Shown here: positions 953 through 60,944 of the stretch, piece by piece
Position numbering within the stretch: position 1 is the stretch's first letter
Layout of the letters: every line of letters starts with the position of its first letter
Made by a program: the position numbers and the translations under genes
Notes under the pieces: generated by a model
Told to the model about the DNA's origin: nothing
What the model saw: only the letters and a program-made list of their open reading frames with translations
Database searches by the model: none
From: Christensenella sp. UBA3944
GTDB taxonomy: Bacteria > Bacillota > Clostridia > Christensenellales > DTU072
Direction: 5' to 3'
Length of the DNA: 64,000 bases
NCBI GenBank assembly: GCA_002385605.1
Contig: DGDU01000033.1
Span: 13,587 to 77,586 of the forward strand

Positions 953-1129
953 GTGTCCACAGTGTATGTCAAAGATAACGAGACCCTTGACAGCGCCATC
1001 CGCAGATGGAAGAAAAAGTGCGCCAACGACGGAATAATCGGTGACCTCCGCCGCAAAGAGGCATACGAGAAGCCCAGCGTACGCCGCAAGAAGAAAATTG
1101 AGGCAGCGCGTAAGAGAATGTACAAGTAA
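953..1129 (+). CDS. rpsU: 30S ribosomal protein S21
   Basis: GTG start after GGAGGTGAGATT. Translation: [57 protein letters not shown]. Below the 60-aa cutoff, so not in the ORF track. Confidence 0.93.
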
Positions 1130-16273: not shown

Positions 16274-16831
16274 TTATTTCGCTACCTTCACCATAGCGTG
16301 GCGAAGGACTTTGCCTTCCCTGGTGTACCCTTTTTGCAGCACCTCTATTATCTTTCCGCTGTTTTCGGGGTCTTCTTCCTGCATTACGGCGTTGTGAAGC
16401 TCGGGATCGAACATCTGCCCCTCGGCCTCGATTTCCTTTACGCCGTACCTGCCGAATAGGGCTTGTATCTGCCTTAGTATAAGCCCGACGCCCTCACGGG
16501 ACTTTTCGTCGGGTATGACTTTAAGGGCTATATCCACTGCGTCCACAACGGGCAAAAGGTTTAGTATTACCTCGTTGTTCCCTTCGGCGCGGGCCTGCTT
16601 TACGCTTTCGTTGTTTCTTTTGCGGTAGTTGTCGAAGTCCGCCTGAATCCTCTGCGCGAGAGATTTGAACTCCTCGGCCTCGGCAACCGCTTTGGCAATT
16701 ATTTCCTCGCCGCTTATGCCTTTGTTGTCTTGGGCTTCGGCCTCAGCCGCAGCTTCAGTTTCCGCGTTAGTCAAATTCCCTGCCTCGGCGTTTACCGATT
16801 CCTCTGCGGGCCTTTTCTCTTTGTCAGTCAT
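16274..16831 (-). CDS. grpE: nucleotide exchange factor GrpE
   Basis: GrpE core ...FDNYRKR...VLPVVD...FDPELHNAV. Confidence 0.95.
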   Translation of the reverse strand: MTDKEKRPAEESVNAEAGNLTNAETEAAAEAEAQDNKGISGEEIIAKAVAEAEEFKSLAQRIQADFDNYRKRNNESVKQARAEGNNEVILNLLPVVDAVDIALKVIPDEKSREGVGLILRQIQALFGRYGVKEIEAEGQMFDPELHNAVMQEEDPENSGKIIEVLQKGYTREGKVLRHAMVKVAK

Positions 16832-17897
16832 TGTTCTCCTCTTTTTTTATGTCTATTTTTTTGATTCCGCTGTTAAATATGGTGTTAACGGCGCTTCTTA
16901 CATACGAAAGCACCGAAATTACTTTGCCGTAGTCCATGCGCTCGGGCCCTATTACGCCCGCCTTGCCTATCTCTTTGCCGTTTATGGTGTAAGAGGCGGC
17001 TACCACGGCGCATTTGTCCATTCCTTTGGTTTCCTCTTTGCCTATCTTTATCGAGAATTCGATATCGGGCTCTTCCTTCTCGAGAAGCTCCATAATCTTC
17101 GATTTGTCGTCTATGATGGTAAGAAAGCTCTTAGCCGACTCGAGGCTTGCCTCGGGGTACTCGAGAATCTTGCTCTCGCCCTCGACGAATACTTTTGCCT
17201 CGTCCTGCTCGCAGTAGGAAAGAAGAATGGAAAGTACGCTTTCGAAAAGCTCCTTGAAGTCCGAAAGCTCCTTTTGCACCTCGACATCGGCACTCTTTAA
17301 GTCGCCCACCTTCCTGCCGCCGAACACCTTGTTAATAAGAAGCGAGGCGTTGGATAGGAAGTTGTCGTCCAACCTGCTCTCGACGGTTATAACCTTGTCG
17401 CGGATGATGCCGCCGTCGGTTATGATAATCACCAGCGCGCTGTTTTCGTCCAGCCCCACAAGCTTGATTTCTTTAATAACGACATTGGCGATATTTTTTA
17501 TTACAATAACCGAGGTGTAATTTGTTACATCGCTTATTATCTTTGCGGCGGAGCGCACTATCTCCTCTATCTCCTTGAACTTGGCGTTAAAGGTGGCGTC
17601 TATCTTCGCGATATCCTGCCTGCGAAGGGGGCGCTTGTCGAGGAAGTTCTCGACATAATATTTGTACGCCTTGGGCGCGGGCACCCTTCCCGCCGAGGTA
17701 TGCGGCTGCACAAGATACCCCATATCCTCAAGGGTCGATAGCTCCGCGCGGATGGTCGCCGAGCTGATATCGTCAAAATATTTTGCCTTTATCTCGCCCG
17801 AGGACACGGGAGCGGCCTTTCTGATATACTCGTCTACGACCGCCCTTAATATTTTTTGTTTACGAGAAGACAACTTATTCTCTTTCATTTTTGGCAA
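16824..17897 (-). CDS. hrcA: heat-inducible transcription repressor HrcA
   Basis: N-terminal wHTH RKQKILRAVVDEYIRKAAPVSSGEI, HrcA length. Start is either TTG 17897 or ATG 17888. Confidence 0.93.
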   Translation of the reverse strand: MPKMKENKLSSRKQKILRAVVDEYIRKAAPVSSGEIKAKYFDDISSATIRAELSTLEDMGYLVQPHTSAGRVPAPKAYKYYVENFLDKRPLRRQDIAKIDATFNAKFKEIEEIVRSAAKIISDVTNYTSVIVIKNIANVVIKEIKLVGLDENSALVIIITDGGIIRDKVITVESRLDDNFLSNASLLINKVFGGRKVGDLKSADVEVQKELSDFKELFESVLSILLSYCEQDEAKVFVEGESKILEYPEASLESAKSFLTIIDDKSKIMELLEKEEPDIEFSIKIGKEETKGMDKCAVVAASYTINGKEIGKAGVIGPERMDYGKVISVLSYVRSAVNTIFNSGIKKIDIKKEENND

Positions 17898-17912: not shown

Positions 17913-17939
17913 TTAGCACTCTATGGTTTTGAGTGCTAG
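17913..17939. promoter_or_regulatory. CIRCE operator (HrcA binding site)
   Basis: TTAGCACTC-N9-GAGTGCTAG. Matches the consensus TTAGCACTC-N9-GAGTGCTAA at 17 of 18 positions. Confidence 0.9.
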
Positions 17940-17943
17940 CATT

Positions 17944-17971
17944 ATTATAACATTATTATGCCCCATGTCAA
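17944..17971 (-). promoter_or_regulatory. sigma-A promoter of the hrcA-grpE-dnaK-dnaJ operon
   Basis: Minus strand TTGACA (17971-17966), 16 nt, TATAAT (17949-17944), immediately upstream of CIRCE. Confidence 0.7.
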
Positions 17972-18063
17972 GGGAATATTCACACATTTCGCAAAATTAA
18001 TGGGTTAATAAAAATTTTCCTTATAAGAGGAATGTAAAAAATATCAAAATATGATATATTGCG

Positions 18064-18138
18064 ATCAATTTATGTGATAAATTTCAATCAATTTATGTGA
18101 TAAATTACGATCAATTTATGTGATAAATTGCAATCAAT
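18064..18138. repeat. 23-bp tandem repeat, 3 full copies plus a 6-bp partial copy, each with an internal palindrome
   Basis: ATCAATTTATGTGATAAATT at 18064, 18087 and 18110 (identical 20-mers with 3-nt variable linkers), then ATCAAT at 18133. Core inverted repeat AATTTAT-GTG-ATAAATT. Confidence 0.9.
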
Positions 18139-19252
18139 CGGGCAAAAACCTGCGGGCGGCGTAGCTTTCGAGAAGCATTTTGTCCTTTTTCATTTTTACC
18201 CTTCCGCCCGAAACCTCGAGAATACCGCAAAGCGATTTTATCTCCATATCGTACCTCGCAAGAAAATCTATGCCGAAAAGCCCGTTTATTTCGTCTATCG
18301 AAAAGCCGTCTTCGAGGCGCAGCTTCAGCATAATATATTCGAACAAGGCGTCGCCTTTGCTTAGTATTATCGAGTTAGCTTTTCCGTTTCCCAGATGGTT
18401 CCCGCCTAAGTAGGATGTAAGGTCCGAGGGGTTTTCGTAGCGCACTCCTTCTATGAACGAATGGGCGGATGCGCCTATGCCGATATAATCTTCCCTGTTC
18501 CAATATTTAAGGTTGTGCAGGCTGTAATTCTTATCTTTGCAAAAGTTGCTTATTTCGTATCTGGCATAACCGTTTTGCCGCATTATAGAATACCCCGCGT
18601 CGTACATATCCGCAGAGGCGTCGTCGTCCGGAAGCGCAATGCTGCCCCCGTTAACCGCCCGCCCCATAGGGGTATCGTCGGAGAGCTTAAGCATGTACTG
18701 CGAGATATGGTTTACAAAGGGCATTACTTTGTTAAGGGCGCAGCCTACATCCTCTACGTTCTGCCCCGGCAGCCCGAGCATAAGGTCGGCGCTTACATTG
18801 GGATAAATGCCCGCAGCCCTTTCGAGAGCGTCAAGCGCCTGCCCTGGAGTGTGGCTTCTGCCTATTATTTTTAAGATTTGCGGATTAAGGGTCTGGACGC
18901 CGATACTTACACGGTTTACGCCCAAAGATTTATAATATGCAAGATTATCAGAGCTGCAGGGATTAATCTCGATTGTAAATTCTCTTATATTCACAGAGGC
19001 GCATTTGTGAATATGCCCAACTATTCCCTCCAGAATACTTATCGGGAGCACACTGGGCGTGCCGCCCCCGATATAGATAGTGTCTATTACGGTTTGAGGG
19101 TAACGGGATAGGACAAGGGATAATTCTTTCTTTTGCTCTTTTGCGTAACGCTCGACCAAATCGGTATCTATGGCTACCGAATAGAAGTCGCAATAGGCGC
19201 ACTTTATCGAGCAGAAAGGTATGTGTATATATAGCCCTCTGTTAGTTGTCAT
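18134..19252 (-). CDS. hemW: radical-SAM heme chaperone HemW (HemN-like)
   Basis: [10 protein letters not shown] radical-SAM motif near the N-terminus, HemN_C-like tail. Confidence 0.9.
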
Positions 19253-21047
19253 CTAGTTTGAGAATGGACATAAAGGCTTCGGACGGCACTTCGACCGAGC
19301 CGATCTGGCGCATACGCTTCTTGCCTTCCTTTTGCTTCTCGAGAAGTTTCTTCTTACGGGTTATGTCGCCGCCGTAGCACTTGGCAAGAACATCTTTGCG
19401 CACAGCCTTTACCGTTTCGCGGGCGATTACCTTGCCCCCTATCGCAGCCTGAACGGGAATCTCGAATTGCTGGCGGGGGATAATGTCCTTTAGCTTTTCC
19501 GCCATTCTTCTGCCCGTAGCGTAAGCGTGGTCGCGGTGGACGATAACCGAAAGGGCGTCGCAGACATCGCCGTTAAGCAGTATATCGAGTTTTACGAGGT
19601 CGCCCTCGGCGTAGCCGCAGGGCTCGTAGTCTAAGCTGGCGTAGCCCCTCGAGCGGGATTTAAGGGCGTCGAAGAAATCGTAAATTATCTCGGCAAGGGG
19701 TATAATGTATTCTATCTTTACCCTGGTTGACTCGAGGTAAGTGAGGTTTTCGTAAATGCCCCTCTTTTGCTGGCACAGCTCCATAACCGCCCCGACATAC
19801 TCGGGCGGGGTGTAGATGAAGGCCTTTACCATAGGCTCTTCTATTTTTTCTATCAGGGCGGGCGAGGGCAGTTTGGAGGGGTTTTCGACCACCACCATTT
19901 CGCCGTTGGTTTTATATACCTTGTAGCTGACGCTGGGGGCGGTGGTTACGAGGTCGAGGTCGAACTCGCGTTCTAACCGCTCCTCTATTATTTCCATGTG
20001 GAGAAGGCCCAAAAAACCGCAGCGGAAGCCGAAGCCTAAAGCTCCCGAGCTTTCGGGCTCGACCACCAAAGCGGCATCGTTTAAGTTTAGCTTATCCAAA
20101 GCGTCCCTCAGCTCGTTATAGCGCGAACCGTCGGCGGGATAGATACCCGCAAATACCATTGGCTGAACCTTTTTGTAGCCTTGCAAGGGCTCGATTGCGC
20201 CGCCTACGGCGTGGGTTATGGTGTCGCCAACGGCGGTATCCTTTACATTCTTTATGCTGGCGGCGATGTAGCCTACCTCGCCCGCCGAAAGGCTGTCTAC
20301 GGGCTTCATATTGGGCGCAAACACGCCTACCTCGGTTACCTCGAACTCCTTGCCCGTGGACATCATCTTTATGCGCTGCCCCGCCGAAACGCTTCCGTCC
20401 ACTATGCGGATATTGCATATCGCGCCCTTGTAGTTGTCGTAAACGCTGTCGAAGATAAGTGCTTTCAATGGGGCGTTGGGATTGCCGGAGGGCGGGGGTA
20501 TCTTTTCTATTATCTGATTTAAGACTTCCTCTATGTTAAGGCCCTCTTTGGCGCTTATAAGCGGCGCTTCGGAGGCGTCAAGCCCGATTACATCCTCTAT
20601 TTCTTTGCGGGTAGCCTCGGGGTCGGCGGAAGGAAGGTCTATCTTGTTTATAACGGGTAAAATTTCGAGATTGTTGTCTAAGGCAAGGTAAACATTGGTC
20701 AGGGTCTGCGCCTCGATGCCCTGCGTAGCGTCCACGACAAGGAGGGCGCCCTCGCAGGCGGCAAGCGAGCGGCTAACTTCGTAGGTAAAGTCGACATGCC
20801 CCGGGGTGTCGATTAGGTTAAAGGTGTACTCTTTGCCCTCGTATTTGTAAAACATCCTTACGGGCGTCAGCTTTATGGTTATGCCGCGCTCGCGTTCGAT
20901 GTCCATATCGTCAAGTATCTGAGATTTCATCTCGCGCTCGGATACCGCGCCCGTCTTCTCTATGATGCGGTCGGCAAGCGTACTTTTGCCGTGGTCTATG
21001 TGCGCGACGATGCAGAAATTTCGTATAAATTTTTGTCTGTCTTCCAT
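19242..21047 (-). CDS. lepA: translation elongation factor 4 (LepA)
   Basis: [19 protein letters not shown]1 motif, DTPGHVDF, LepA C-terminal domain. Confidence 0.97.
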
Positions 21048-49577: not shown

Positions 49578-52500
49578 TTATTCAGCTATTCCGCTGTCCG
49601 CGAAGGCGTCTTTGCCAATATTTGAAGCGCCCCGGGGAAGGTTTACATAATTTAAGCTTGCGCAGCCCGCAAAGGCGCGCTCTCCTATAACAATGTTAAC
49701 GGGGGCTTCGGACAAATCCAGCCCGAGGAAGGAGCGGCAGTCGAGGAAGGCCCCTTCTTCTATTCTTGCGAGTTCGCTGAAGTCGCCGTAAAGCATCGAA
49801 AGCGACGAGGCGTCGGCAAAAGCGTACTTGCCTATCGCCGTAATCCTTCTGGAAAGCGTTACGGTGGCAATGCCCATGCAGCCCGCGAAAGAGTACTCTT
49901 TAATCTCTGTCGCCTTGGTGAGCGTAACATAACGGAGGGTGAAGGGTATGTTATACAGCGTTTCGGTAAGCGTTCCGCCTGCCATTATATGCTGTTTTAC
50001 CACATTGGCGGCGTATTCGCCCGCCGTGCCGAATATGTAGCCGAACTGCGACTGCGCGCCTGTCGCGCTAAGCGACCTTCCCGCGAAAGGTATCGAGAGC
50101 GACACAAGCGAGTTGGTGCCCTCAAGCGATCCGCCCTCTATGATATTCACCGAATACGGTATCGTAAGGGATGTTATCGAACGGCAGTTGTAGAAGGCTT
50201 TAGCTGGTATCTCTGTTATGCCCTCGTTTATAGTTATCGAGGTTACCGCCGTAAGGTTATAGAAAGCGCCGTACCCTATCGCCGAGGCGGAGGTTATTGC
50301 TATCGACCTTAAGGCCTCGGGTATGTAGAAGGTTCTTGAGCCAGACGTGCTGAAGTATTGCGTCGTCGCGCCTATAGTGCCCTCGGTTGCCTCGCCGAAT
50401 ATGTATCCGAACAAGGCGGCAGCGCCGCTTGCCGAACGGTTGGAACCGACAAACGGCAAGGTGACGCTCTCTAAAGCCGAGCAGCCCGCGAAGGCGCCCG
50501 AGGCAATCGATGTCACGCTGTCGGGAATCACAATAGAGGTAAGCCCTTTGCAGTTGGCGAATGCCGAGGCGCCGATGCTCACTATGCCGCTGTTAAGGTA
50601 AAGCTCGGTTATCTCGTCGCAGTTATAGAAGGCGCCGCTTGCTATATTGGTTGCGTTGGTAACCGTCACGCTGTAAAGGTTATTGGGAAGCCTGGTGTAT
50701 ACGGTTGTGCCTTCGCCGTAAACCTGCGCAGTCGTGTTCATGCCCTGCGACACAAAGTTGAAGAAGTAGCCGAGCAAGGCGTTCTGGCCTGCGGCCGAGG
50801 GTGAAGCTCCGATAAACGGCACCGTCAGCCTTTCGAGCCCCGTTACGCCCTCGAATATGCCTATGCCTATGCTTTCGACGCCTGCGGGAATGGCGATCTG
50901 GGTAAGCGCGGTATTCTTAAACGCCGCCGCCCCTATTACCTGCAGCTGCGAGCCCGCCGCGAATATTATTTCGTTAAGCTGCGCGCAGCCCTCGAAGGCG
51001 TTGGCGCCTATCGAAGTCACGCTCGCGGGTATGGTTATGCTCCTTAAAGCCGTCAGGCCCGAGAACGCCCCGCTCTCGATGGCGACTAGCCCCGCGGGAA
51101 GCGTAATCGTAGTGATTCTGGTGTTATAAGAGAAGGAATTTGTCCTTATCCTCGCGGCGTCGGTGATGTTTACAACGGTCAGATTGCTTGGCGCGCCTCC
51201 GAACACATAATTTATGGTCGCGGCCTCGCCCGTAGCCGAGCGGGAAGCGCCCACAAACGGCACCGTAAGCGTCTGTATTCCGCTGTCCTTAAAGGCGCTC
51301 TTGCCCACGCTCGTGACTTCCTTATTTATTGTAAGCGTTGTCAGGTTAGAAAGCCCCGAAAGCGCGCCGTAGCCAATGCCCGAAGCGTTGGTAACAGTAA
51401 TATTTCTGATGTTTTGGGGTATCCTGGCATAGGCTATCTGCCCGGCGCCGTCGCCGTAGTGTTGCCCTACCGCGCCGCTCGCGCCCGCCGCTACCTGCTC
51501 GAACCAGTAGCCCAGCAGAGCTTCCTGCCCGTCGGCAACGCTTCTCGCGCCGATGTAAGGAACGGTAAGGTTTTCGAGGTTGAGGCAGCCCGAGAACGCT
51601 CCCCGGTGTATCGATGTCACATTGTTAAGGGTGAGGTTCACAAGCCCCGTCATGCCAAGCAAAGCGTTTTCGGCGATGGTAACGGCCGAGGTAATCACGA
51701 GGGTTTGCACGCTCGAGATTCCGCTTTCGGACTCTGTGCCGAACACATGCCTCATCGTCGCCCTGGCGTCCACGGAGTTTGTGCGCTCTCCTACAAACGG
51801 CACCGTCAGGGTTTCTAGCGACACGCAGCCCTCGAAGGCAAGCGCGCCTATCGTTGCAACGCCGCTGTTGATGGATATGCTTGTTATGAAGTGGCAGCCC
51901 GAGAACGCCCCGTAATTGATGGCGGTAGCCGAGGTCACGGTGACATTCTTAAGCGTGGTCGGGATTTCAAAAGATATCGGCGAGGTCTGCTGGGCGTATT
52001 TTTGGGAAATTCCGCCGCTCTCCGCCCGCCCGAAGAAGTACCCGAGTACGGCGTTTGCGCCCGTTGCGTCCCTGGCCGAGCCAATAAACGGCACCGAGAA
52101 CCTCTGGCTTAACGGGCAGCCGTTAAAGACCGCGCTACCTATGAATGTAACGCTGTCGGGTATGACGATATCCGCGAGAGATGCGCAGCCCTTGAATGCG
52201 GCTTCGTTGATGGTCGAAAGCTTGGATCCCGAAGCGAACACTACCGACCTTAAAGCCGAATTCTCGAAGGCGTGCCCTTCTATGGCAAGCACGCTTGCGG
52301 GTATGGTTATATTCTCCAATGCGGTATTATACGCGGCGTAAGCGCCTATCTGCGTAATACCCTCGTTGAGGTAAAGGGCGGTAATCCGCGTGTCCCTTAT
52401 GGCGTCGCTCGCCAGGAAGGCAGCCGCGGTAACGGTTAAGGTCTTAAGGGCTATAGGCACATTCGCGTTGTCCGCAGCGTGCCCGAAAAGATATCCCAGC

Positions 52501-55500
52501 TTGTGCTCGTCGGTTGTGGGCACATTCTTGTCCTTGTCCTTGCCTACAAAGGGCAGGGTTAGCGAAACAAGGTTTACGCAGCCCTCAAAAGCAGCCTCGC
52601 CCATTGTAAGGACGGTTTGCGGTATTACGGCTTCCTCCAAAGAGGCGCAATCCTTAAAGGCCTCGTAGCCTATCTCGCGCACGCCGTCGGGAAGGGTAAT
52701 CTGCCTTAAGACATCGCAGCCCGAGAAGGCGCCCTCGCCCACGGATATGAGGCGGGAGCCGCTCTCGAAGTTCACCGAAATAAGGTTATGGCAGTTAGCG
52801 AAGGCGTAAGCGCCTATCGTCCCGACATCGGCCGATATTGTAATCGTTTCGAACGCCGCGCCGTAGAAGGCGTAATCGCCTATGCTTAGTATCCTGGCGT
52901 TGCCGCCGATATCTATAAGCTGCAGAGAGGGACACTCTATAAACGCCCTGTCGCCTATGCTCACCTTGCCGAGCGCCCTGAAGGTTCTCAGGTTAGCCAT
53001 ACCCGAGAAAGCGCCGTCGGAAACCACCGAATCTCCCGTGACCGTCACGGATACGAGGCTTGCTGGAATCTCGCTGTAGAAGTAATTGCCCGCTTCGAAA
53101 TACTGCCTTACGGCGCCCGATGCCGATTGGTCTGTAAAGCCGAACAGGTACCCCAACAGCCCCTCCCTGCCGGAGGCCGATGCGCTCTCGCCCACGAAGG
53201 GCAGCACTACGCTTTCAAGCGCCTTGCAGTTGGCGAACACGCCCTCGGGTATAGAAGCGATATCTCCGCTTATTTCTATCGATTTAAGGTTAAAGCCCGC
53301 GGGGAAGGCCGATGTCGTCAGCTTTGTGACAGATGTCAACTTAATATTATTAAGGTTTGTTAGCGGCTCTCCGGTAAGGTACATAAGAGAGCTCTCGGCG
53401 CCCTCGGCGTCCGCGCCGGCGCCTGCAAACGGCAGCTCAAGCGACACAAGCCCTGTGCAGCCCACTATAAGGTTTTTGCCCAGCGCGCCGCCGTCCCTTA
53501 CCGTAAGGTTCTGCAGCGAGGCTATATTGGAGAACGCGCCGTACCCGCCCGCGCGGTTCACGATAACCGTCTTTAAGGTGGCGGGTATAAAGGCGTAAAC
53601 GCTTTCGGTTTCGCTTATAAACTGCTCGGTTACGCCGGCATCCGTCGCCTCGCCGAAGCCGAATATGCTGCCCAAAACGGCGTTTGCCCCGACAGCGTCG
53701 GCAGAGGTGCCCGCGAAGGGCAAATCTAGGCTTTCGATTATAAGGTTGCCGCGCAGCGAGCCTTCTTCTATGGACACAATGCCCGCTCCCAGCGTAAGCG
53801 ACCTGAGGGCGGTTATGCCCCTGAAAGTCTTATTGGTTATGGCGATTTCGAGGGTGTCGTTGGCAATCGTGATATTCTCTATCGCCGCCGAGCCGCCGAA
53901 CACCTCGTCAAGGGCGGGGTCGGAATCCGAGGGGCTCTTGCCCACAAACGGGACAGTTATATTCTTAAGCGAGGCGTTATTTCCGAACGCGAGATCGCCC
54001 ATCGATTCCAGCGACCTGGGAAGCGCTATGGTTGCAATCGCTGTGTTATAGAATGCCTTATCGCCTATCGACGAAAGCGTTTGATTGAGGCTTACCTGAA
54101 CAAGGCTTACGCAGTCCATAAACGCCGCTTCGCCGATGGTTCGTACGGACGCAGGCAGGACGGCGCCAGTCAGGCTGTTGGCGCCCGCGAAGGCTTCTTT
54201 GGCGATATAGCCAAGTGCGGTATCTGCGAGGTTTACGCTCGCGAGGTTGTAAGCGCCTTTGAAAGCGCCCTCTCCCATCTCAATAAGCGAGGCGGGCAGG
54301 CGGGCAAAGGCTATGCCCGAATTTTCGAAGGCGTAATCGCCTATGTATGTAAGCTCTTCGCAACCCTCAAGGTTTAGGGCTATAAGCCTGTCTGTTTCGG
54401 CGAAGGCCTTTTCCTCTATACGTGTAAGCGTCGAGGGAATATCGAATATCCTTAAGTTTGCGCAATTATAGAATGCCTCGTATTCGATGACAAGCAGGCT
54501 GGGTCCTCCCCTGAAGCTTACCGTATCCAGGTTAGCGCAATCCTTAAATGCCGCGAAGCCTATGCTCAGAAGCCCCGAAGGCAGGGATACCGTTTGCAGA
54601 TAGGTATTGGAAGCGAAGGCGTACGCGTCTATTCTCACAACGCCGTCGGGCACGGTGTAGCTCGCCGCGTTAAGCGACTTGGGATAGGAAATAAGCACCG
54701 AGCCGTCCTTCGAGAACAGCACGCCCGACACCACCTTGTAGCCCGAGCGGTAGCCCGAGAGGTTGAGGCCCGAAACAGGCGTCTCGTAGAAGGGGTTTAC
54801 GCCCATATAAGTTACGCCCGAAGGAATGGCAAATGTTGCGAGGTTGGAATGAGCGAAGGCGTAGCTTCCTACACGGGCAAGGGCGCTGTTTGTCCCGAAG
54901 CTAATCGAAGAGAGCAAGGTATGGGCAAAGGCGTAATCGCCTATCTCCAACGCGGACGCCGGCAGAGCGACCGTCGATACCTTGGTATGGGCAAAGGCGT
55001 AATCGCCCAAAGTTTCTAGGGCGCTGCCCGCGGCAAAGGTTATGCCCGCGAGGTTTTCGCAACCCTCGAAGGCGTAATCGCCTATATACCTAAGAGAAGC
55101 CGGGAAGGTTATAGCCGTTATGGCGGTGTTGCCGCGGAATGCGCTATCCCCTATGTTTACAAGCTGTGCTGCCACGGCGAAGGTAACCGAGGCAAGGCTC
55201 AGGTTGTTCGCGAAAGCGTAATCGCCGATGGCGAGCACGCCCGCGGGCACGCTCACCGATGTTATCGCCGTGCCGAAAAAGGCTTTGGCGTTGATGTAAG
55301 CCAGCCTGCTTCCTATAACCTCGAAGGTTATGGTTTGCAGGGCGCTTCCCTCAAACGCCGATTCGTCTATTGTCACGACGGATGCGGGAATATTAACCGC
55401 CGCGATTTGCGCCATGTAGAAGGCCTTTTTGTTTATGGATGCCAGATTCTCGTTGAGGGTGACATTCAGCGCAGGTATGCCGCTAAGAGCCCCCTCCCCG

Positions 55501-58500
55501 ATGTGCAGGGCGTTTGTTATAATGATGTTTTTTAAGGAAGAAGGAATATAATATGTGAATTCCTCATCCGCCCCGTATTGGGTGATTTCGGCGAAGCCCG
55601 CCGCGGTCTCTGCGCCGAAGATATACCCTAGCATGGCGTCCGCCCCGCCCGTAGCCTCACGGTTTGCCCCGATATAGGGCAGGCTTATCGTTTCAAGCGA
55701 CAGGCAGCCCCTGAACAGGCCCTGCCCTATATGGGTAAGGGCGTTGGGCAGGTAAACCGTGCGCAGGTTGACGCTGTTTTCGAAGGCGTAATCGCCTATA
55801 TACGCAAGGTTGCTGTTGGGTACGCTAAGCACCACAGATACCAGGTTGGGCATATTCGAGAAGGCGCCCTCGCCTATCGAAATTACGCTGTTCGGGATAT
55901 TCAAATCCTGTATTACGGTAGCCCTGAAAGCGTAATCGCCTATCGTGCGAACCCTGTTAAGGTTAATTAAGGATAGGTTGTTCGCGCCGTCAAAAGCGTA
56001 ATCGCCTATGGCAGTAATCGAGTTGGGAAGCACAATCCTTTCGATTCCCGTATTGCCGGCAAAAGCCCTTTCGCCAATCTCCTCTGCGCCGTCGTTAATG
56101 GCGACTTCCTCAATCGAGGTATTCATGAACGCGCCGTAGGGTATGCGGTCGGCGCTGGTTATCGCCACGCTCGCGAGCGTGCCAGGTATGAAGTAATAAG
56201 CAAAGCCGCTGTCGGAGTAATACTGCTGAACGGCGCCCGCGGAGGGCTCGTCCGAATACCCGAAGATGTATCCGAACACGGCGTCGGGAGTGCCCTCGAC
56301 ATCCCTCGCCGAGCCCACAAAGGGTATAGTAAGCGCCTCGAGGGCGTTAAGCCCGTACAAAGCGTTAGCCTCTATCGTTATAATATTGGCGTTAAGCTTT
56401 ACCTCAACAAGGCTTGCCACATTGTAAAGCGCGCCGTAGCCTATCACGGAAGCGTTGGTTACTTCCAGGTATGCAAGCCCCGAAGGAATTATGTAATGGC
56501 CTTGCTGCCCTTCGGCGTATTGCTGCGTAACTCCGCTTTCATCTTCCGCGGGAGCGAACAGGTAACCGAGGATAGCCTCGGCGCCCTCGGCGTTACGGCT
56601 TTTGCCGATAAAGGGTATAGTGAGGGCTTGAAGGTTTTGGCAGCCCTCTAACGCCTTAGCGCTCATTTCGGTTACGGTGTCGGAGATTACGATTTCCTCA
56701 AGCGAAGCTATATTGGAGAAAGCCCCGTAAGGTATGCGGGTGGCTTTTGTCACATTTACATACTTTAGCCCCGCGGGTATATGGTAATAAGCGAAGCCGC
56801 CTTCGGAATAATCCTGCCTTATCGCGCCCGCCGTTTCGCCGTCGGAGTAATTAAACAAATACCCGAGCACGGCGTCGTCGGTGCCGTTGGCGTAACGGGC
56901 GGAGCCTATGAAGGGTATCGTGAGGGCTTCCAATGCCCCGCACCCCTCAAACATAAGGGCGGACATCCTGGCAAGCTCGGAAGAAATCTTTGCCTCGGTT
57001 AGCGAAACGCAGCCCGCGAAGGCCTTATGCCCTATCGCCTTTACGCCGTCGGACATCGTCACTTTAATAAGGCTTTCGCAGCCCTCGAAGGCCGAAGCGC
57101 CTATCCTCACCAAAGAGGAAGGCAGATACGCCTCGAGGATTGCCTCGCAGCCCATAAACGCCTTAGAGCCTATGGTTGTAAGCCTGTTAAAGGCGCGCAG
57201 GTCAAGACCCTCAATCCTGTTAAACTCGGCAAGGTTTACGCAGCCCTCAAAGGCCGAGTCGCCTATCGAGGTTATCGTTGCGGGAAAGCTCATTGCCCTC
57301 AGGTTCACACAGCCATAGAAAGCCTTTTCGGCTATCGCCGCAATATGGGTTATATCCAAGTTGATAATATCCCTGAGCGCCGCGCTGCCCATAAAGGCGC
57401 CCGCCTCGATGGCTGCGAACTGCTCGGCGGTGAAGGTTACTCTCTCGAGCGCCGAATACGCGAACGCCATCGAAGCTATCGAAGTCACATTCGCGGGTAT
57501 GGAGAAAGCGGTTATCACACTTCCGCCGTCGTTCCTGTTTGCGGGGTATTGGATAAGTTTGGTGCCTTCATAGTTATAAAGGACGCCGTCTACGGACCTG
57601 AAATACATTCCGCCCATAACATCGATGCTCTCGAGGGCGGGGCAGCCTATAAAAGCGCCCGACGCGATTTGCTTTACGCTCGAGGGTATGGTTATTCTCT
57701 TTATGTAAGAATTGCCCGAGAAAGCATACTTGCCTATGGCGGTAACGGGTATTTCGCTGCCGTAATACTGTATGGTGTCAGGGACATTTACTTCATCGAC
57801 AGAAGAGTCGCCGAAATATTTGGTAAGTATAGCCTCGTTATTTTTAATATAAAACCTGAAGTCGCCTACCGCCACGATTTCCATTTCCGCGCCTTCCTTC
57901 CAGTAGATGGCGGGATCGTCCCATCTGTCCTTCCAATCGGCGGGCTTTGCCGCTCCCGTGGCGTAAACCACAATTAAGCCGCTTCCCGCGAAGGCGTTCC
58001 TGTCCACGGAAGTAATGCTTTGGGGCAGGGTTATGGTCTTTATTCCCGTCTTATTTACGAAGGCGCTGCCTATGGACACGACTTCGTCATTGCCGAAGAT
58101 GCTGCCGGGAACGGTGATTTCTTCGCTGCTTCCGGTGTAGGAAGTGATATATACCGAACTGACGCGGTCGTTGTCGTTATACTCGACAAGCACATAAGCG
58201 TATTTTATATTTTCTTCCGTATTCTCATACTCGTCGGTATACGCCTCATAATTTACCGTAAGGAGGGGGCAATTATGGAAGGCGAGGGCGCCGATGTAAG
58301 TAAGCGACGCGGGCAGCTCTATGCTGCTAAGGGCTTTGCAGCCGTTGAAAGCCTCATTGGCAATGCTGATAAGCGTGCGGGGCAGGCTTACATTCATCAA
58401 GGAAGCGCAGCCCATAAACGCCTTTTCGCCGACATATACGGTGTTCTCGAGAGTTATCTGCCTTATTTCGCCGCAACCCGAGAACGCCCCATATGGGATC

Positions 58501-60944
58501 GAGCGGCTGTCCGTGATGATAACGCTCTTAAGCGACACGGGCAGATAATATCTTATGTAATTGATGTCGTCGTACCACTGATACGCCGCCGAGCTACCCG
58601 TGAAATAGCTGTTGCCGAAGATATACCCGAAAACGCTTTCGGAAGACCCCGCTTCCCCTCTCGCGCTTCCCACGAAGGGTATGGTGAGCTCTTCTAGCAG
58701 GACACAGCGGTCGAAAGCGTTGCTGCCTATCCATGTTACGCTGTCGGGTATAATCATCTCGGTAACGGATGTGCCCGCGAACACATAGCAGCCGATGGAT
58801 TTTAAGGTATCGGAAAGCGTGATTTCTATTAGCGAGGTGCAGTCATAAAATGCGTAGTTTCCTAAAGTTTCGACACTGCCCGGCACTGTGAAATTGTTAA
58901 ATGTTTTGCCCTGCGGGTATTGGATGAGGCTCTTTGCGTCCGAGCTGTATAACACGCCGCCGTTTGACATGTAAACACTGTTGCCCGGGGCTACAAGAAT
59001 CTCCTCTAGCGACACGCAGCCGCGGAAGGGCCCGTTTCCGATGTTGCTTACGCCCGCGGGAATGGTAAAGCTGGTAAGAGAAACACAGCCGTTAAAGGTT
59101 TCGGCGTCTATGTTCTTTATCGAGGCGGGAAGGTTAACCGTCATTAGCGCGGTGCAGTTTTTGAAGGATTCGGTGCCAAGGCGGCTCACGCCGTTATGCA
59201 GGGTAACCATCGTTATGTAGGAATTGCCGCGGAAGGCGTCGTTGGAAATAGCCGTCACGGCTACGCCCTTATAGGTAGAGGGCACAAAGACTTCCGCCTC
59301 CAGCCCGCTGTAGCCCGTAACGATGTAAGTGCCGTCGCCCGCCAGCGTAAACTTAAGCCCCTGGGTTTGCTTTTCTTTCCACGAAGCTATAACGGCCATA
59401 TCCTGTGTGTATTCCCACTTGGCGGGGGCAAAAGCCTGCCCGTTAAGTGTCCAGCCGGCGAAGTCGTAGGCGAACCTCTCGCCCTTAACCTCGGTAAGCC
59501 TGTAAATAAAGTTTTCGTCGTATCTTACCTCTATGTACTTGCCGTTTTCGTCCGAAAGCGTGGCGCCGCTAACCGTCGCGCCCTCTTCCAAAGCGGTAAA
59601 GTACAGCTTGTATACATTGGGCCTCAGCGAGCCGAACACCTCGAGGTCGGTCGCGGGCATCTTTTCGGGAAGCTCTCTCCAGCCCGTAAAGGTGTAGCCC
59701 GTCCTCTGCGGGTCTTCTATGGCCTCGACATCGTCATTCGCCCTGTAGGTTTTTATCAGGTATACTTCGCCGTCAAGATAATAAATTAGCGAGAATGTAT
59801 ATGTGAAATACCCGCTTACTATAATATCCCTCGCGGGCATCGTGGCGGGAATCTCGCCGCCTTCATAAGCCCAGCCCGAGAACATGGCGTTGGGCTGGGT
59901 GGGGTAATCTATGAGGACTATTGGCTCGCCGCAAAGCACGTCCTGCGTCCAGTAATGGCTGTCGCCAACGAGATATCTTATGTAGAAAGTCTGCGGGGAG
60001 AATGTGCCGTAAATATCAAGGTCGTAAGCGGGCATGGTAAGAGGCACGGGGGCGCCGCCCTCGACAGACCAGCCCATAAAGTTAAAGCCGTCCTTCCTGG
60101 GGTCGGAGGGCTTGAAGGTGATGGATTGGTTATATTCGTATTCTATCTCGAGGGGCTTGCCGTCCACTATGTAGGGAACGCCCTCGATGAAGTACCTGAC
60201 TTTATATTTGTTAACCTGCCATTTTGCAAAAACTATAAGGTTTCCCGTTGTGCCCTTTTCTATCCTGGTAACCTCGGTGTCGTTCTCGTCAAACCACCCG
60301 AGGAAGGTGTAGCCTTGCCTCTGGGCGGGGCTGAGGGTTATGGTCGAAGTTTCTATTGTGTATTTTGCGGGGTTTGCCTGGGGATTGGTGCCGTCCTCGA
60401 TGTTGTTGTATGTAATCGAATAATCAATAAGACTCCATTTGGCGCGAAGGGTTATGTTTCTTGTGGGCTTATAGGGAGATGTAACAGGGTTTTTATCGTT
60501 TACATTTTCAAACCAGCCCAAGAACCTGTAGCCCGTTTTTGTCGGCCTGGGAAGGTCGTCTATTTCCTCTACGCCCTCCTGCCTGGCGACCGCCGAGCCG
60601 CCGTCCGAGTCAAACTCGACATCATACTTTGGTTTTTCAACCGGGGGCGTAACCTTTTCTTTCCATTTGGCGTAAACCGTAACATTGCCGCCGTAGCGAA
60701 GCAACTCATCTTTGGTTACATGCTTGGAATAAATATCCTTGTCGAAGAACCAGCCCTCAAAGGTATAACCTTCCCTCACGGGGTCGGCGGGCAAATCGAA
60801 GTCTTCGCCGTTAAGCTCGATAGGCGGGATTTCGTTACCTCCCTGCGTATCGAAGGTTACGGTGTAAGTTTGGGGCTTGTCGTTACAGGCCGCTATACCG
60901 ACTATAAGACAAAGAGCCAAAAGAGCCAAAAGGACTTTTTTCAT
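49578..60944 (-). CDS. giant (3788 aa) surface lipoprotein with N-terminal Listeria-Bacteroides (Flg_new) repeats followed by BspA-type leucine-rich repeats
   Basis: Signal peptide with lipobox LIVGIAAC (Cys20). About 7 repeats with GYTFxGW...AKW (aa 26-525). Then roughly 3200 aa of IPxSVxxIGxxAFxxCxxLxxI units. SD GGAGG 7 nt before the ATG. Confidence 0.9.
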   Translation of the reverse strand: MKKVLLALLALCLIVGIAACNDKPQTYTVTFDTQGGNEIPPIELNGEDFDLPADPVREGYTFEGWFFDKDIYSKHVTKDELLRYGGNVTVYAKWKEKVTPPVEKPKYDVEFDSDGGSAVARQEGVEEIDDLPRPTKTGYRFLGWFENVNDKNPVTSPYKPTRNITLRAKWSLIDYSITYNNIEDGTNPQANPAKYTIETSTITLSPAQRQGYTFLGWFDENDTEVTRIEKGTTGNLIVFAKWQVNKYKVRYFIEGVPYIVDGKPLEIEYEYNQSITFKPSDPRKDGFNFMGWSVEGGAPVPLTMPAYDLDIYGTFSPQTFYIRYLVGDSHYWTQDVLCGEPIVLIDYPTQPNAMFSGWAYEGGEIPATMPARDIIVSGYFTYTFSLIYYLDGEVYLIKTYRANDDVEAIEDPQRTGYTFTGWRELPEKMPATDLEVFGSLRPNVYKLYFTALEEGATVSGATLSDENGKYIEVRYDENFIYRLTEVKGERFAYDFAGWTLNGQAFAPAKWEYTQDMAVIASWKEKQTQGLKFTLAGDGTYIVTGYSGLEAEVFVPSTYKGVAVTAISNDAFRGNSYITMVTLHNGVSRLGTESFKNCTALMTVNLPASIKNIDAETFNGCVSLTSFTIPAGVSNIGNGPFRGCVSLEEILVAPGNSVYMSNGGVLYSSDAKSLIQYPQGKTFNNFTVPGSVETLGNYAFYDCTSLIEITLSDTLKSIGCYVFAGTSVTEMIIPDSVTWIGSNAFDRCVLLEELTIPFVGSARGEAGSSESVFGYIFGNSYFTGSSAAYQWYDDINYIRYYLPVSLKSVIITDSRSIPYGAFSGCGEIRQITLENTVYVGEKAFMGCASLMNVSLPRTLISIANEAFNGCKALSSIELPASLTYIGALAFHNCPLLTVNYEAYTDEYENTEENIKYAYVLVEYNDNDRVSSVYITSYTGSSEEITVPGSIFGNDEVVSIGSAFVNKTGIKTITLPQSITSVDRNAFAGSGLIVVYATGAAKPADWKDRWDDPAIYWKEGAEMEIVAVGDFRFYIKNNEAILTKYFGDSSVDEVNVPDTIQYYGSEIPVTAIGKYAFSGNSYIKRITIPSSVKQIASGAFIGCPALESIDVMGGMYFRSVDGVLYNYEGTKLIQYPANRNDGGSVITAFSIPANVTSIASMAFAYSALERVTFTAEQFAAIEAGAFMGSAALRDIINLDITHIAAIAEKAFYGCVNLRAMSFPATITSIGDSAFEGCVNLAEFNRIEGLDLRAFNRLTTIGSKAFMGCEAILEAYLPSSLVRIGASAFEGCESLIKVTMSDGVKAIGHKAFAGCVSLTEAKISSELARMSALMFEGCGALEALTIPFIGSARYANGTDDAVLGYLFNYSDGETAGAIRQDYSEGGFAYYHIPAGLKYVNVTKATRIPYGAFSNIASLEEIVISDTVTEMSAKALEGCQNLQALTIPFIGKSRNAEGAEAILGYLFAPAEDESGVTQQYAEGQQGHYIIPSGLAYLEVTNASVIGYGALYNVASLVEVKLNANIITIEANALYGLNALEALTIPFVGSARDVEGTPDAVFGYIFGYSDEPSAGAVQQYYSDSGFAYYFIPGTLASVAITSADRIPYGAFMNTSIEEVAINDGAEEIGERAFAGNTGIERIVLPNSITAIGDYAFDGANNLSLINLNRVRTIGDYAFRATVIQDLNIPNSVISIGEGAFSNMPNLVSVVLSVPNSNLAYIGDYAFENSVNLRTVYLPNALTHIGQGLFRGCLSLETISLPYIGANREATGGADAMLGYIFGAETAAGFAEITQYGADEEFTYYIPSSLKNIIITNALHIGEGALSGIPALNVTLNENLASINKKAFYMAQIAAVNIPASVVTIDESAFEGSALQTITFEVIGSRLAYINAKAFFGTAITSVSVPAGVLAIGDYAFANNLSLASVTFAVAAQLVNIGDSAFRGNTAITAITFPASLRYIGDYAFEGCENLAGITFAAGSALETLGDYAFAHTKVSTVALPASALEIGDYAFAHTLLSSISFGTNSALARVGSYAFAHSNLATFAIPSGVTYMGVNPFYETPVSGLNLSGYRSGYKVVSGVLFSKDGSVLISYPKSLNAASYTVPDGVVRIDAYAFASNTYLQTVSLPSGLLSIGFAAFKDCANLDTVSFRGGPSLLVIEYEAFYNCANLRIFDIPSTLTRIEEKAFAETDRLIALNLEGCEELTYIGDYAFENSGIAFARLPASLIEMGEGAFKGAYNLASVNLADTALGYIAKEAFAGANSLTGAVLPASVRTIGEAAFMDCVSLVQVSLNQTLSSIGDKAFYNTAIATIALPRSLESMGDLAFGNNASLKNITVPFVGKSPSDSDPALDEVFGGSAAIENITIANDTLEIAITNKTFRGITALRSLTLGAGIVSIEEGSLRGNLIIESLDLPFAGTSADAVGANAVLGSIFGFGEATDAGVTEQFISETESVYAFIPATLKTVIVNRAGGYGAFSNIASLQNLTVRDGGALGKNLIVGCTGLVSLELPFAGAGADAEGAESSLMYLTGEPLTNLNNIKLTSVTKLTTSAFPAGFNLKSIEISGDIASIPEGVFANCKALESVVLPFVGESASASGREGLLGYLFGFTDQSASGAVRQYFEAGNYFYSEIPASLVSVTVTGDSVVSDGAFSGMANLRTFRALGKVSIGDRAFIECPSLQLIDIGGNARILSIGDYAFYGAAFETITISADVGTIGAYAFANCHNLISVNFESGSRLISVGEGAFSGCDVLRQITLPDGVREIGYEAFKDCASLEEAVIPQTVLTMGEAAFEGCVNLVSLTLPFVGKDKDKNVPTTDEHKLGYLFGHAADNANVPIALKTLTVTAAAFLASDAIRDTRITALYLNEGITQIGAYAAYNTALENITIPASVLAIEGHAFENSALRSVVFASGSKLSTINEAAFKGCASLADIVIPDSVTFIGSAVFNGCPLSQRFSVPFIGSARDATGANAVLGYFFGRAESGGISQKYAQQTSPISFEIPTTLKNVTVTSATAINYGAFSGCHFITSISINSGVATIGALAFEGCVSLETLTVPFVGERTNSVDARATMRHVFGTESESGISSVQTLVITSAVTIAENALLGMTGLVNLTLNNVTSIHRGAFSGCLNLENLTVPYIGARSVADGQEALLGYWFEQVAAGASGAVGQHYGDGAGQIAYARIPQNIRNITVTNASGIGYGALSGLSNLTTLTINKEVTSVGKSAFKDSGIQTLTVPFVGASRSATGEAATINYVFGGAPSNLTVVNITDAARIRTNSFSYNTRITTITLPAGLVAIESGAFSGLTALRSITIPASVTSIGANAFEGCAQLNEIIFAAGSQLQVIGAAAFKNTALTQIAIPAGVESIGIGIFEGVTGLERLTVPFIGASPSAAGQNALLGYFFNFVSQGMNTTAQVYGEGTTVYTRLPNNLYSVTVTNATNIASGAFYNCDEITELYLNSGIVSIGASAFANCKGLTSIVIPDSVTSIASGAFAGCSALESVTLPFVGSNRSASGAAALFGYIFGEATEGTIGATTQYFSTSGSRTFYIPEALRSIAITSASAIGYGAFYNLTAVTSITINEGITEIPAKAFYNCRSITSLTIPYSVNIIEGGSLEGTNSLVSLSIPFAGRSLSATGAQSQFGYIFGTAGEYAANVVKQHIMAGGTLTETLYNIPFTLRYVTLTKATEIKEYSFAGCMGIATVTLSRRITAIGKYAFADASSLSMLYGDFSELARIEEGAFLDCRSFLGLDLSEAPVNIVIGERAFAGCASLNYVNLPRGASNIGKDAFADSGIAE

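Follow-up and report, generated by a model that had tools for sequence, protein, structure and literature searches.

The spacer between hemW and hrcA in an uncultured Clostridia MAG from anaerobic digesters contains a tandem array of 23-bp units. The array is restricted to a single species and is fixed in the strains sampled, and the DNA that we searched held neither further copies of the unit nor partner genes for it. The explanation that we favour, and to which we give about even credence, is that the array is a lineage-specific minisatellite born of slippage, with a structural side effect at most. It is favoured by the absence of the array from all other species recovered, the slippage-type edges, the lack of any other copy in ~82 kb, the surroundings of housekeeping genes only and the lack of a fitting operator consensus. 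Throughout, the window is the whole 64-kb stretch of DNA that was analysed, and coordinates refer to it unless a locus of a relative is named.

Anatomy of the array and its locus

Direct reading of the plus strand located the 20-mer ATCAATTTATGTGATAAATT in three zero-mismatch copies starting at 18064, 18087 and 18110, where an earlier, sequence-only reading had placed them. A search of the window with up to three mismatches returned these three array sites only, and none of 100 shuffles gave three matches; the three-copy array of this 20-mer is far beyond chance. In the 64-kb window, TRF reported a tandem array at 18052-18138 (period 23, 3.8 copies, score 139). The remaining TRF repeats in the window all score 50 or less, which makes the array the sole strong tandem repeat there.

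Inside each unit lies the dyad AATTTAT-GTG-ATAAATT, again as first read, which is a perfect palindrome of 17 bp with a 7-3-7 layout (as search motif: AATTTATSWSATAAATT). The dyads are spaced 23 bp from centre to centre, and the centres of their half-sites are 10 bp apart. From hemW towards the promoter, the perfect 20-bp units occupy 18110-18129 (dyad 18113-18129), 18087-18106 (dyad 18090-18106) and 18064-18083 (dyad 18067-18083), with no strand assigned to units or linkers. The 3-nt linkers had been described as variable, and we recovered the three that were named, TCA (18084-18086), ACG (18107-18109) and GCA (18130-18132), together with a further one, GCG, at 18061-18063. The middle base, however, is the same in all four linkers, so that 21 of the 23 unit columns are invariant.

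At one edge the array ends in a partial unit of 6 nt on the minus strand (18133-18138; ATCAAT on the plus strand, ATTGAT in gene sense). It does overlap the hemW stop codon, as had been claimed, the stop TGA being the reverse complement of 18134-18136. This ATTGAT copy supplies microhomology at the array border. At the other edge lies a degenerate fourth unit (18043-18060, no strand assigned; ATCAAAATATGATATATT, or AATATATCA--TATTTTGAT in gene sense), which differs from a perfect unit by about four substitutions and a 2-nt deletion and extends the array promoter-ward. The period had been taken as about two helical turns, with all sites on the same face. The 23 bp correspond to 2.19 turns, or a rotation of about 69 degrees per unit, and the sites face one side of the DNA only roughly, not strictly.

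All genes of the locus are on the minus strand, in the order lepA (19242-21047), hemW (18134-19252), array, hrcA (16824-17888), grpE, dnaK and dnaJ; the identities of hemW (TIGR00539), hrcA (TIGR00331), lepA, grpE and dnaK were confirmed. In GenBank, the HrcA is listed under "Clostridia bacterium"; the closest relatives that have a name are Christensenellaceae/Christensenellales MAGs. The sigma-A promoter of hrcA (17944-17971, minus strand) reads TTGACA-16-TATAAT, a 12/12 match, with an upstream TG extension. The array lies 93-167 bp upstream of its -35, in agreement with the 95-170 bp first estimated. A CIRCE operator, the known HrcA site, is found separately from the array at 17913-17939 (minus strand; TTAGCACTC-N9-GAGTGCTAG on the plus strand). 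The left arm of CIRCE (17939) reads CTAGCACTC in the window and in most strains and has the consensus TTAGCACTC in one strain (L042, ERR14964767), which is a natural operator polymorphism.

Apart from a giant LRR surface protein, the window and 17.7 kb of added flank encode housekeeping functions only (obg, rpsU, dnaG, sigA, prmA, aspS, hisS, hslUV, smc, plsX, ackA and others). We found in this DNA no gene for a Rep or Par protein, an integrase, a transposase or a further regulator, and the neighbourhood encodes no helix-turn-helix regulator besides HrcA. Elsewhere in the window, the product of a giant minus-strand ORF (49578-60944; 3788 aa) is probably a surface adhesin; it has Listeria-Bacteroides repeats at its N-terminus and 21 BspA-type LRR_5 stretches. 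Just past the window end, L111 encodes another protein of similar size (~3790 aa), this one with an MBG_3 domain.

The sole terminator-like signal past hemW is a weak hairpin at 18006-18032 on the minus strand (UUCCU-CUUAUA-AGGAA, −3.8 kcal/mol), which is followed by a U-rich run; no terminator was called on the minus strand. As no other terminator-like signal precedes this hairpin, the array is probably transcribed as hemW 3' UTR. Its position between the hemW stop and the hairpin would suit a role at the RNA level, either as a terminator or stabiliser made up of three hairpins in the 3' UTR or as the source of a small RNA. However, each unit hairpin is all A-U (−3.7 kcal/mol), the region does not differ significantly from shuffled controls (z=−1.43) and there was no Rfam match even at E≤1, so that we find such a role scarcely credible. 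A coding function is excluded by the 23-nt period.

Another alternative is a structural cis element. Phased AATTT/AAATT tracts (~11.5-bp spacing) and the adjacent AT-rich stretch would form intrinsically curved DNA upstream of the hrcA promoter and either tune the recruitment of RNA polymerase or serve for non-specific binding by a nucleoid protein. In a wedge-model path calculation with manually entered parameters, 90-bp segments starting at 18000-18120 ranked in the top 0.1-0.8% for curvature across the 64 kb, and at or beyond the 5th percentile of segments with at least 68% AT. The predicted curvature is moderate, however, with an end-to-end ratio of 0.81-0.88 compared with 0.52 for ideally phased A-tracts, and tracts phased at 11.5 bp gradually lose their register. 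The relatives do without the array, and curvature would not need identical cores. We regard this alternative as improbable. The top predicted curvature in the window falls at ~700-790, upstream of the promoter (TTGACA...TATAAT, ~891-920) of rpsU (S21, 953-1129, plus strand).

Further copies, known motifs and mobile elements

No extra copy of the unit was found, with up to 3-5 mismatches, in the 64-kb window and its flanks of 8.8 and 8.9 kb (~82 kb). The exact 20-mer had no match in the GTDB representative genomes, among which the source species is not included. In metagenome contigs it had five distinct single matches, in unrelated AT-rich DNA and with no array. A two-unit pattern had no match in the IMG/VR viral contigs, where the 17-mer had 60 isolated matches, many of them in giant-virus bins. 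Comparison of the array with PLSDB plasmids and INPHARED phages by blastn gave noise only (PLSDB E≥0.2), and nothing relevant on tandem repeats upstream of hrcA was found in the literature.

The earlier statement that no heat-shock operator matches the array was borne out: the best matches have 8/18 mismatches for CIRCE, 7/14 for HAIR and 5/15 for CtsR. Nor did the array fit the consensus of DnaA (best match 3/9 mismatches), CodY, Fur, PerR, Rex, ARG box, Spo0A, cre, LexA, CRP or parS. An IHF site with one mismatch was rejected, as it lies in the degenerate flank only; IHF is not expected in Clostridia.

Direct 20-bp repeats with a 22-23-bp period and variable linkers occur in iteron origins and transposase-binding ends, and the array lies immediately past a stop codon, like REPs and att sites. 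It might be the relic of a mobile or replicative element: plasmid iterons or a centromere, a multi-site transposon end (Tn7/Mu-like), integrase arm sites or low-copy REP-like palindromes. The C-terminus of HemW, which reads …FLPD* here and …FLK* or …FLR* in relatives, is in keeping with such an origin. However, neither genes for Rep, Par, a transposase or an integrase nor a second, inverted end occur in the 82 kb; a Tn7/Mu-like transposon end was rejected on these grounds. The best DnaA-box match is the poor one given above, there is no similarity to plasmids or phages and no array in viral contigs, and the repeat is not dispersed in the 82 kb. The spacer is comparable in length to that of relatives and thus has no element body. 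The iteron (replication) label that had been attached to the array is contradicted by the lack of a rep gene, of DnaA boxes and of a replicon context. The mobile-element reading is already largely refuted, and we give it very little weight.

Variation among strains, species and units

Loci of the same species (L001-L006, L038-L044 and L105-L109) were collected by exact-protein look-ups (HemW, HrcA and cluster variants) and come from many independent digester metagenomes and from two NCBI MAGs. Wherever a contig covers the whole spacer, the three units, the linkers and the degenerate unit are those of the window. Complete spacers showed no copy-number polymorphism, a comparison of low power because the identity of these strains to the window, over 1-7 kb, is 99.67-100%. 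At this identity, the array would be expected to differ by ~0.1-0.3 substitutions. The lack of variation in such near-clonal strains therefore says little on point mutation and mildly opposes rapid copy-number change. Three contigs (L006, L041 and L108) break in or at the array, with the same units and linkers, and the breaks could reflect assembly trouble or hidden heterogeneity. The locus could be used as a strain or species marker for the organism.

The next HrcA relatives are 76-80% identical, and no relative lies between 80% and 99%. The other-species loci that we compared (n=15) have HrcA identities of 76-80% (L007/L009, L010, L011, L020, L022), 70% (L023) and 46-68% (L027-L035). The array is absent from the orthologous hemW-hrcA site in all 15 (HrcA identity ≤80%). 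The -35, the -10, CIRCE and the leader are kept in every one of them, and the distal spacer is unalignable. The sequence-only reading had named absence from close relatives among the results that would count against it, and the absence of the array in every other species recovered partly does so. The difference at the C-terminus of HemW is consistent with a stop region remodelled by the repeat.

Among the relatives, the sole site similar to the dyad is AATTTATGTGATAATTT in L010, which has one mismatch and abuts the -35 of that locus. We rejected it as a conserved operator, as its close relative L007 differs at the homologous position and the site lies within a generally conserved AT-rich, UP-like T(G/A)(T/C)ATAAA element. 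The resemblance is probably due to chance. The T(G/A)(T/C)ATAAA-like element itself is found in almost all Christensenellales-like relatives at a fixed distance of ~4-6 nt from the hrcA -35, on its upstream side (window ~17976-17990), and could be a UP element or an unrecognised second site.

Two further spacers differ in content. The spacer of L035 (MAG Clostridia bacterium CGS5Y2-bin52) has an unrelated CA-only array at 2821-2988 (24 bp × 7.3, AAAACACACAACAAAACGCATAC), which fills the hrcA 5' UTR from CIRCE (~2755) to the RBS/ATG (~3002) and may act as an unstructured leader or translational enhancer. Its presence in the hrcA leader demonstrates that such spacers do spawn lineage-specific tandem repeats. 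In L007 (Clostridiales bacterium Firm_09, the nearest named relative), a GAF-GGDEF diguanylate cyclase gene (920-2269) is placed between hemW and hrcA, which identifies the junction as a site of gene-order change in the clade.

Differences among the units of the array sit in two linker columns, and none occurs at the 63 core positions. The parsimony minimum is three substitutions. Under uniform placement, the probability that all three avoid the 17-bp dyad is p=0.018, and that of three substitutions inside any 3-column window is p=0.036; for four substitutions both values are ~0.005. We conclude that the linker-confined differences are a genuine sign, if a modest one, that rates differ between columns. 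They could stem from selection on the cores, from homogenisation of the cores with one another or from a special pressure on the linkers. The sequence-only reading had argued from perfect cores and drifting linkers to selection on the cores. Our p-values (~0.02-0.04) lend this some support, but the signal is modest and 21 of 23 columns are invariant anyway, so that the argument is much weaker than it appears by eye. Such complete agreement of the cores, down to the dyad centre and the flank, typifies recent duplication or homogenisation more than it does long-term selection on a transcription factor site.

The linkers at 18061-18063 and 18107-18109 create GATC, a tetramer that occurs in the genome at 0.22 of expectation, and the GATC-to-GATT linker changes may have been driven by restriction avoidance. 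The clustering of GATC (a pair 46 bp apart) was not significant, with about one such pair expected among 39 sites and two seen, and GATT/AATC, which showed no special enrichment, gave no sign of a deamination hotspot. Across the 64 kb, 4-base palindromes are extremely rare relative to a second-order Markov expectation: the ratios are 0.04 for ACGT (12 vs 288, both strands), 0.22 for GATC, 0.31 for CCGG, 0.36 for GGCC, 0.36 for CTAG and 0.55 for CATG. This avoidance suggests pressure from several restriction systems.

Operator, minisatellite and known systems

The dyads could also form an operator array, with three 17-bp sites bound cooperatively by dimers of a putative helix-turn-helix (or ribbon-helix-helix) protein encoded elsewhere. 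Such an array would shield the HrcA-controlled promoter from lepA-hemW read-through, as a roadblock or insulator, or would be a distal site that loops to the promoter. Lambda-type tripartite operators consist of three 17-bp dyad sites, 23-24 bp from centre to centre, which are bound by cooperative repressor dimers, and the geometry of our array equals theirs. The restriction of substitutions to linker columns and the invariance in all sampled strains also fit an operator. Moreover, a weak terminator alone stands between hemW and hrcA, and a roadblock would thus have something to block.

Against an operator, the 82 kb contain no partner gene and no second site, the array is missing from all relatives recovered and no known consensus fits it. 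With a position of -93 to -167 from the -35 and no overlap with the promoter, the array is poorly placed for direct repression or class I/II activation. Promoter-like matches within it reach 9/12, which is not above shuffles. Selection alone does not typically keep sites identical over 21 positions, the dyad centre among them. The sequence-only reading had preferred cooperative binding of a dimer to slippage. The 7-3-7 dyads and their 23-bp spacing are indeed operator-like in anatomy, but we found nothing positive for a protein partner or for a role at the hrcA promoter. We consider an operator array rather unlikely, yet it is the main and a live rival of the minisatellite explanation. Slightly more doubtful is the fuller proposal, in which a putative cooperative DNA-binding protein would use the three dyads as high-affinity landing sites. 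By roadblock or looping, it would superimpose on HrcA/CIRCE at hrcA-grpE-dnaK-dnaJ a second tier of control or insulation that is specific to this species. A true operator would point to a new regulator on the central chaperone operon of an abundant uncultured anaerobic-digester bacterium.

Under the minisatellite explanation, a 23-bp segment of the fast-evolving hemW-hrcA spacer, flanked by ATTGAT microhomology with one copy in the last hemW codons, would have been duplicated head to tail. Duplication by replication slippage or unequal exchange would have led to about four units. The unit at the promoter-side edge would since have decayed, and a few substitutions would have gathered at two linker columns. 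The three interior cores would be identical because they are young and/or were homogenised between copies, and no dedicated binding protein would be required. Consequences of the duplication would be a remodelled hemW stop region, a hemW 3' UTR longer by ~95 nt and a ~100-bp AT-rich stretch of predicted intrinsic curvature that now lies upstream of the hrcA promoter. We infer both the slippage origin and the near-neutrality of the array, and its effect on expression would be small.

Several findings count against a minisatellite. These are the linker-confined differences (p=0.018-0.036; ~0.005 for four substitutions), the contrast of a decayed fourth unit with three perfect cores, the lack of another strong tandem repeat in the 64 kb, and the constancy of copy number and linkers across independent metagenomes and MAGs, whose strains are near-clonal and give this last point little power. 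As the evidence stands, the main value of the case is methodological: duplication within one lineage, in a spacer that evolves fast, can produce an anatomy that looks like a textbook iteron or operator.

Among known systems, the operators OR1-3 and OL1-3 of lambda share with the array three 17-bp dyads at a spacing that suits cooperative dimers. In contrast to the array, the lambda sites overlap promoters, adjoin the repressor gene and differ in sequence, whereas the sites here are identical, lie ~100-170 bp from the nearest promoter and have no repressor gene nearby. CIRCE/HrcA, the CtsR box and HAIR resemble the array in their dyad symmetry and their association with the control region of the hrcA-dnaK operon. 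However, their sequences do not match it (8, 5 and 7 mismatches, respectively), and the genuine CIRCE is a separate element at 17913-17939.

The iterons of plasmids such as RK2, R6K and pSC101 are likewise direct repeats of ~17-22 bp with a 22-23-bp period, conserved cores and variable spacers. Unlike them, the array has no rep gene, DnaA boxes, plasmid context or PLSDB similarity, and it is situated in a conserved chromosomal housekeeping locus. REP/BIME elements are also short palindromic units in tandem clusters with variable linkers just after a stop codon. REPs, however, number tens to hundreds of scattered copies with a GT[AG]G head for RAYT transposases, whereas the array occupies one locus in 82 kb and has no GT[AG]G head.

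Minisatellites of the VNTR/MIRU type differ from the array in that it shows no copy-number polymorphism in the sampled strains, is confined to a single locus, has a core that is a perfect palindrome and varies in two linker columns only. They resemble it in their head-to-tail units of tens of bp, their intergenic position in an operon-like string of genes, a partial unit over the upstream stop codon, a degenerate edge copy and restriction to a lineage.
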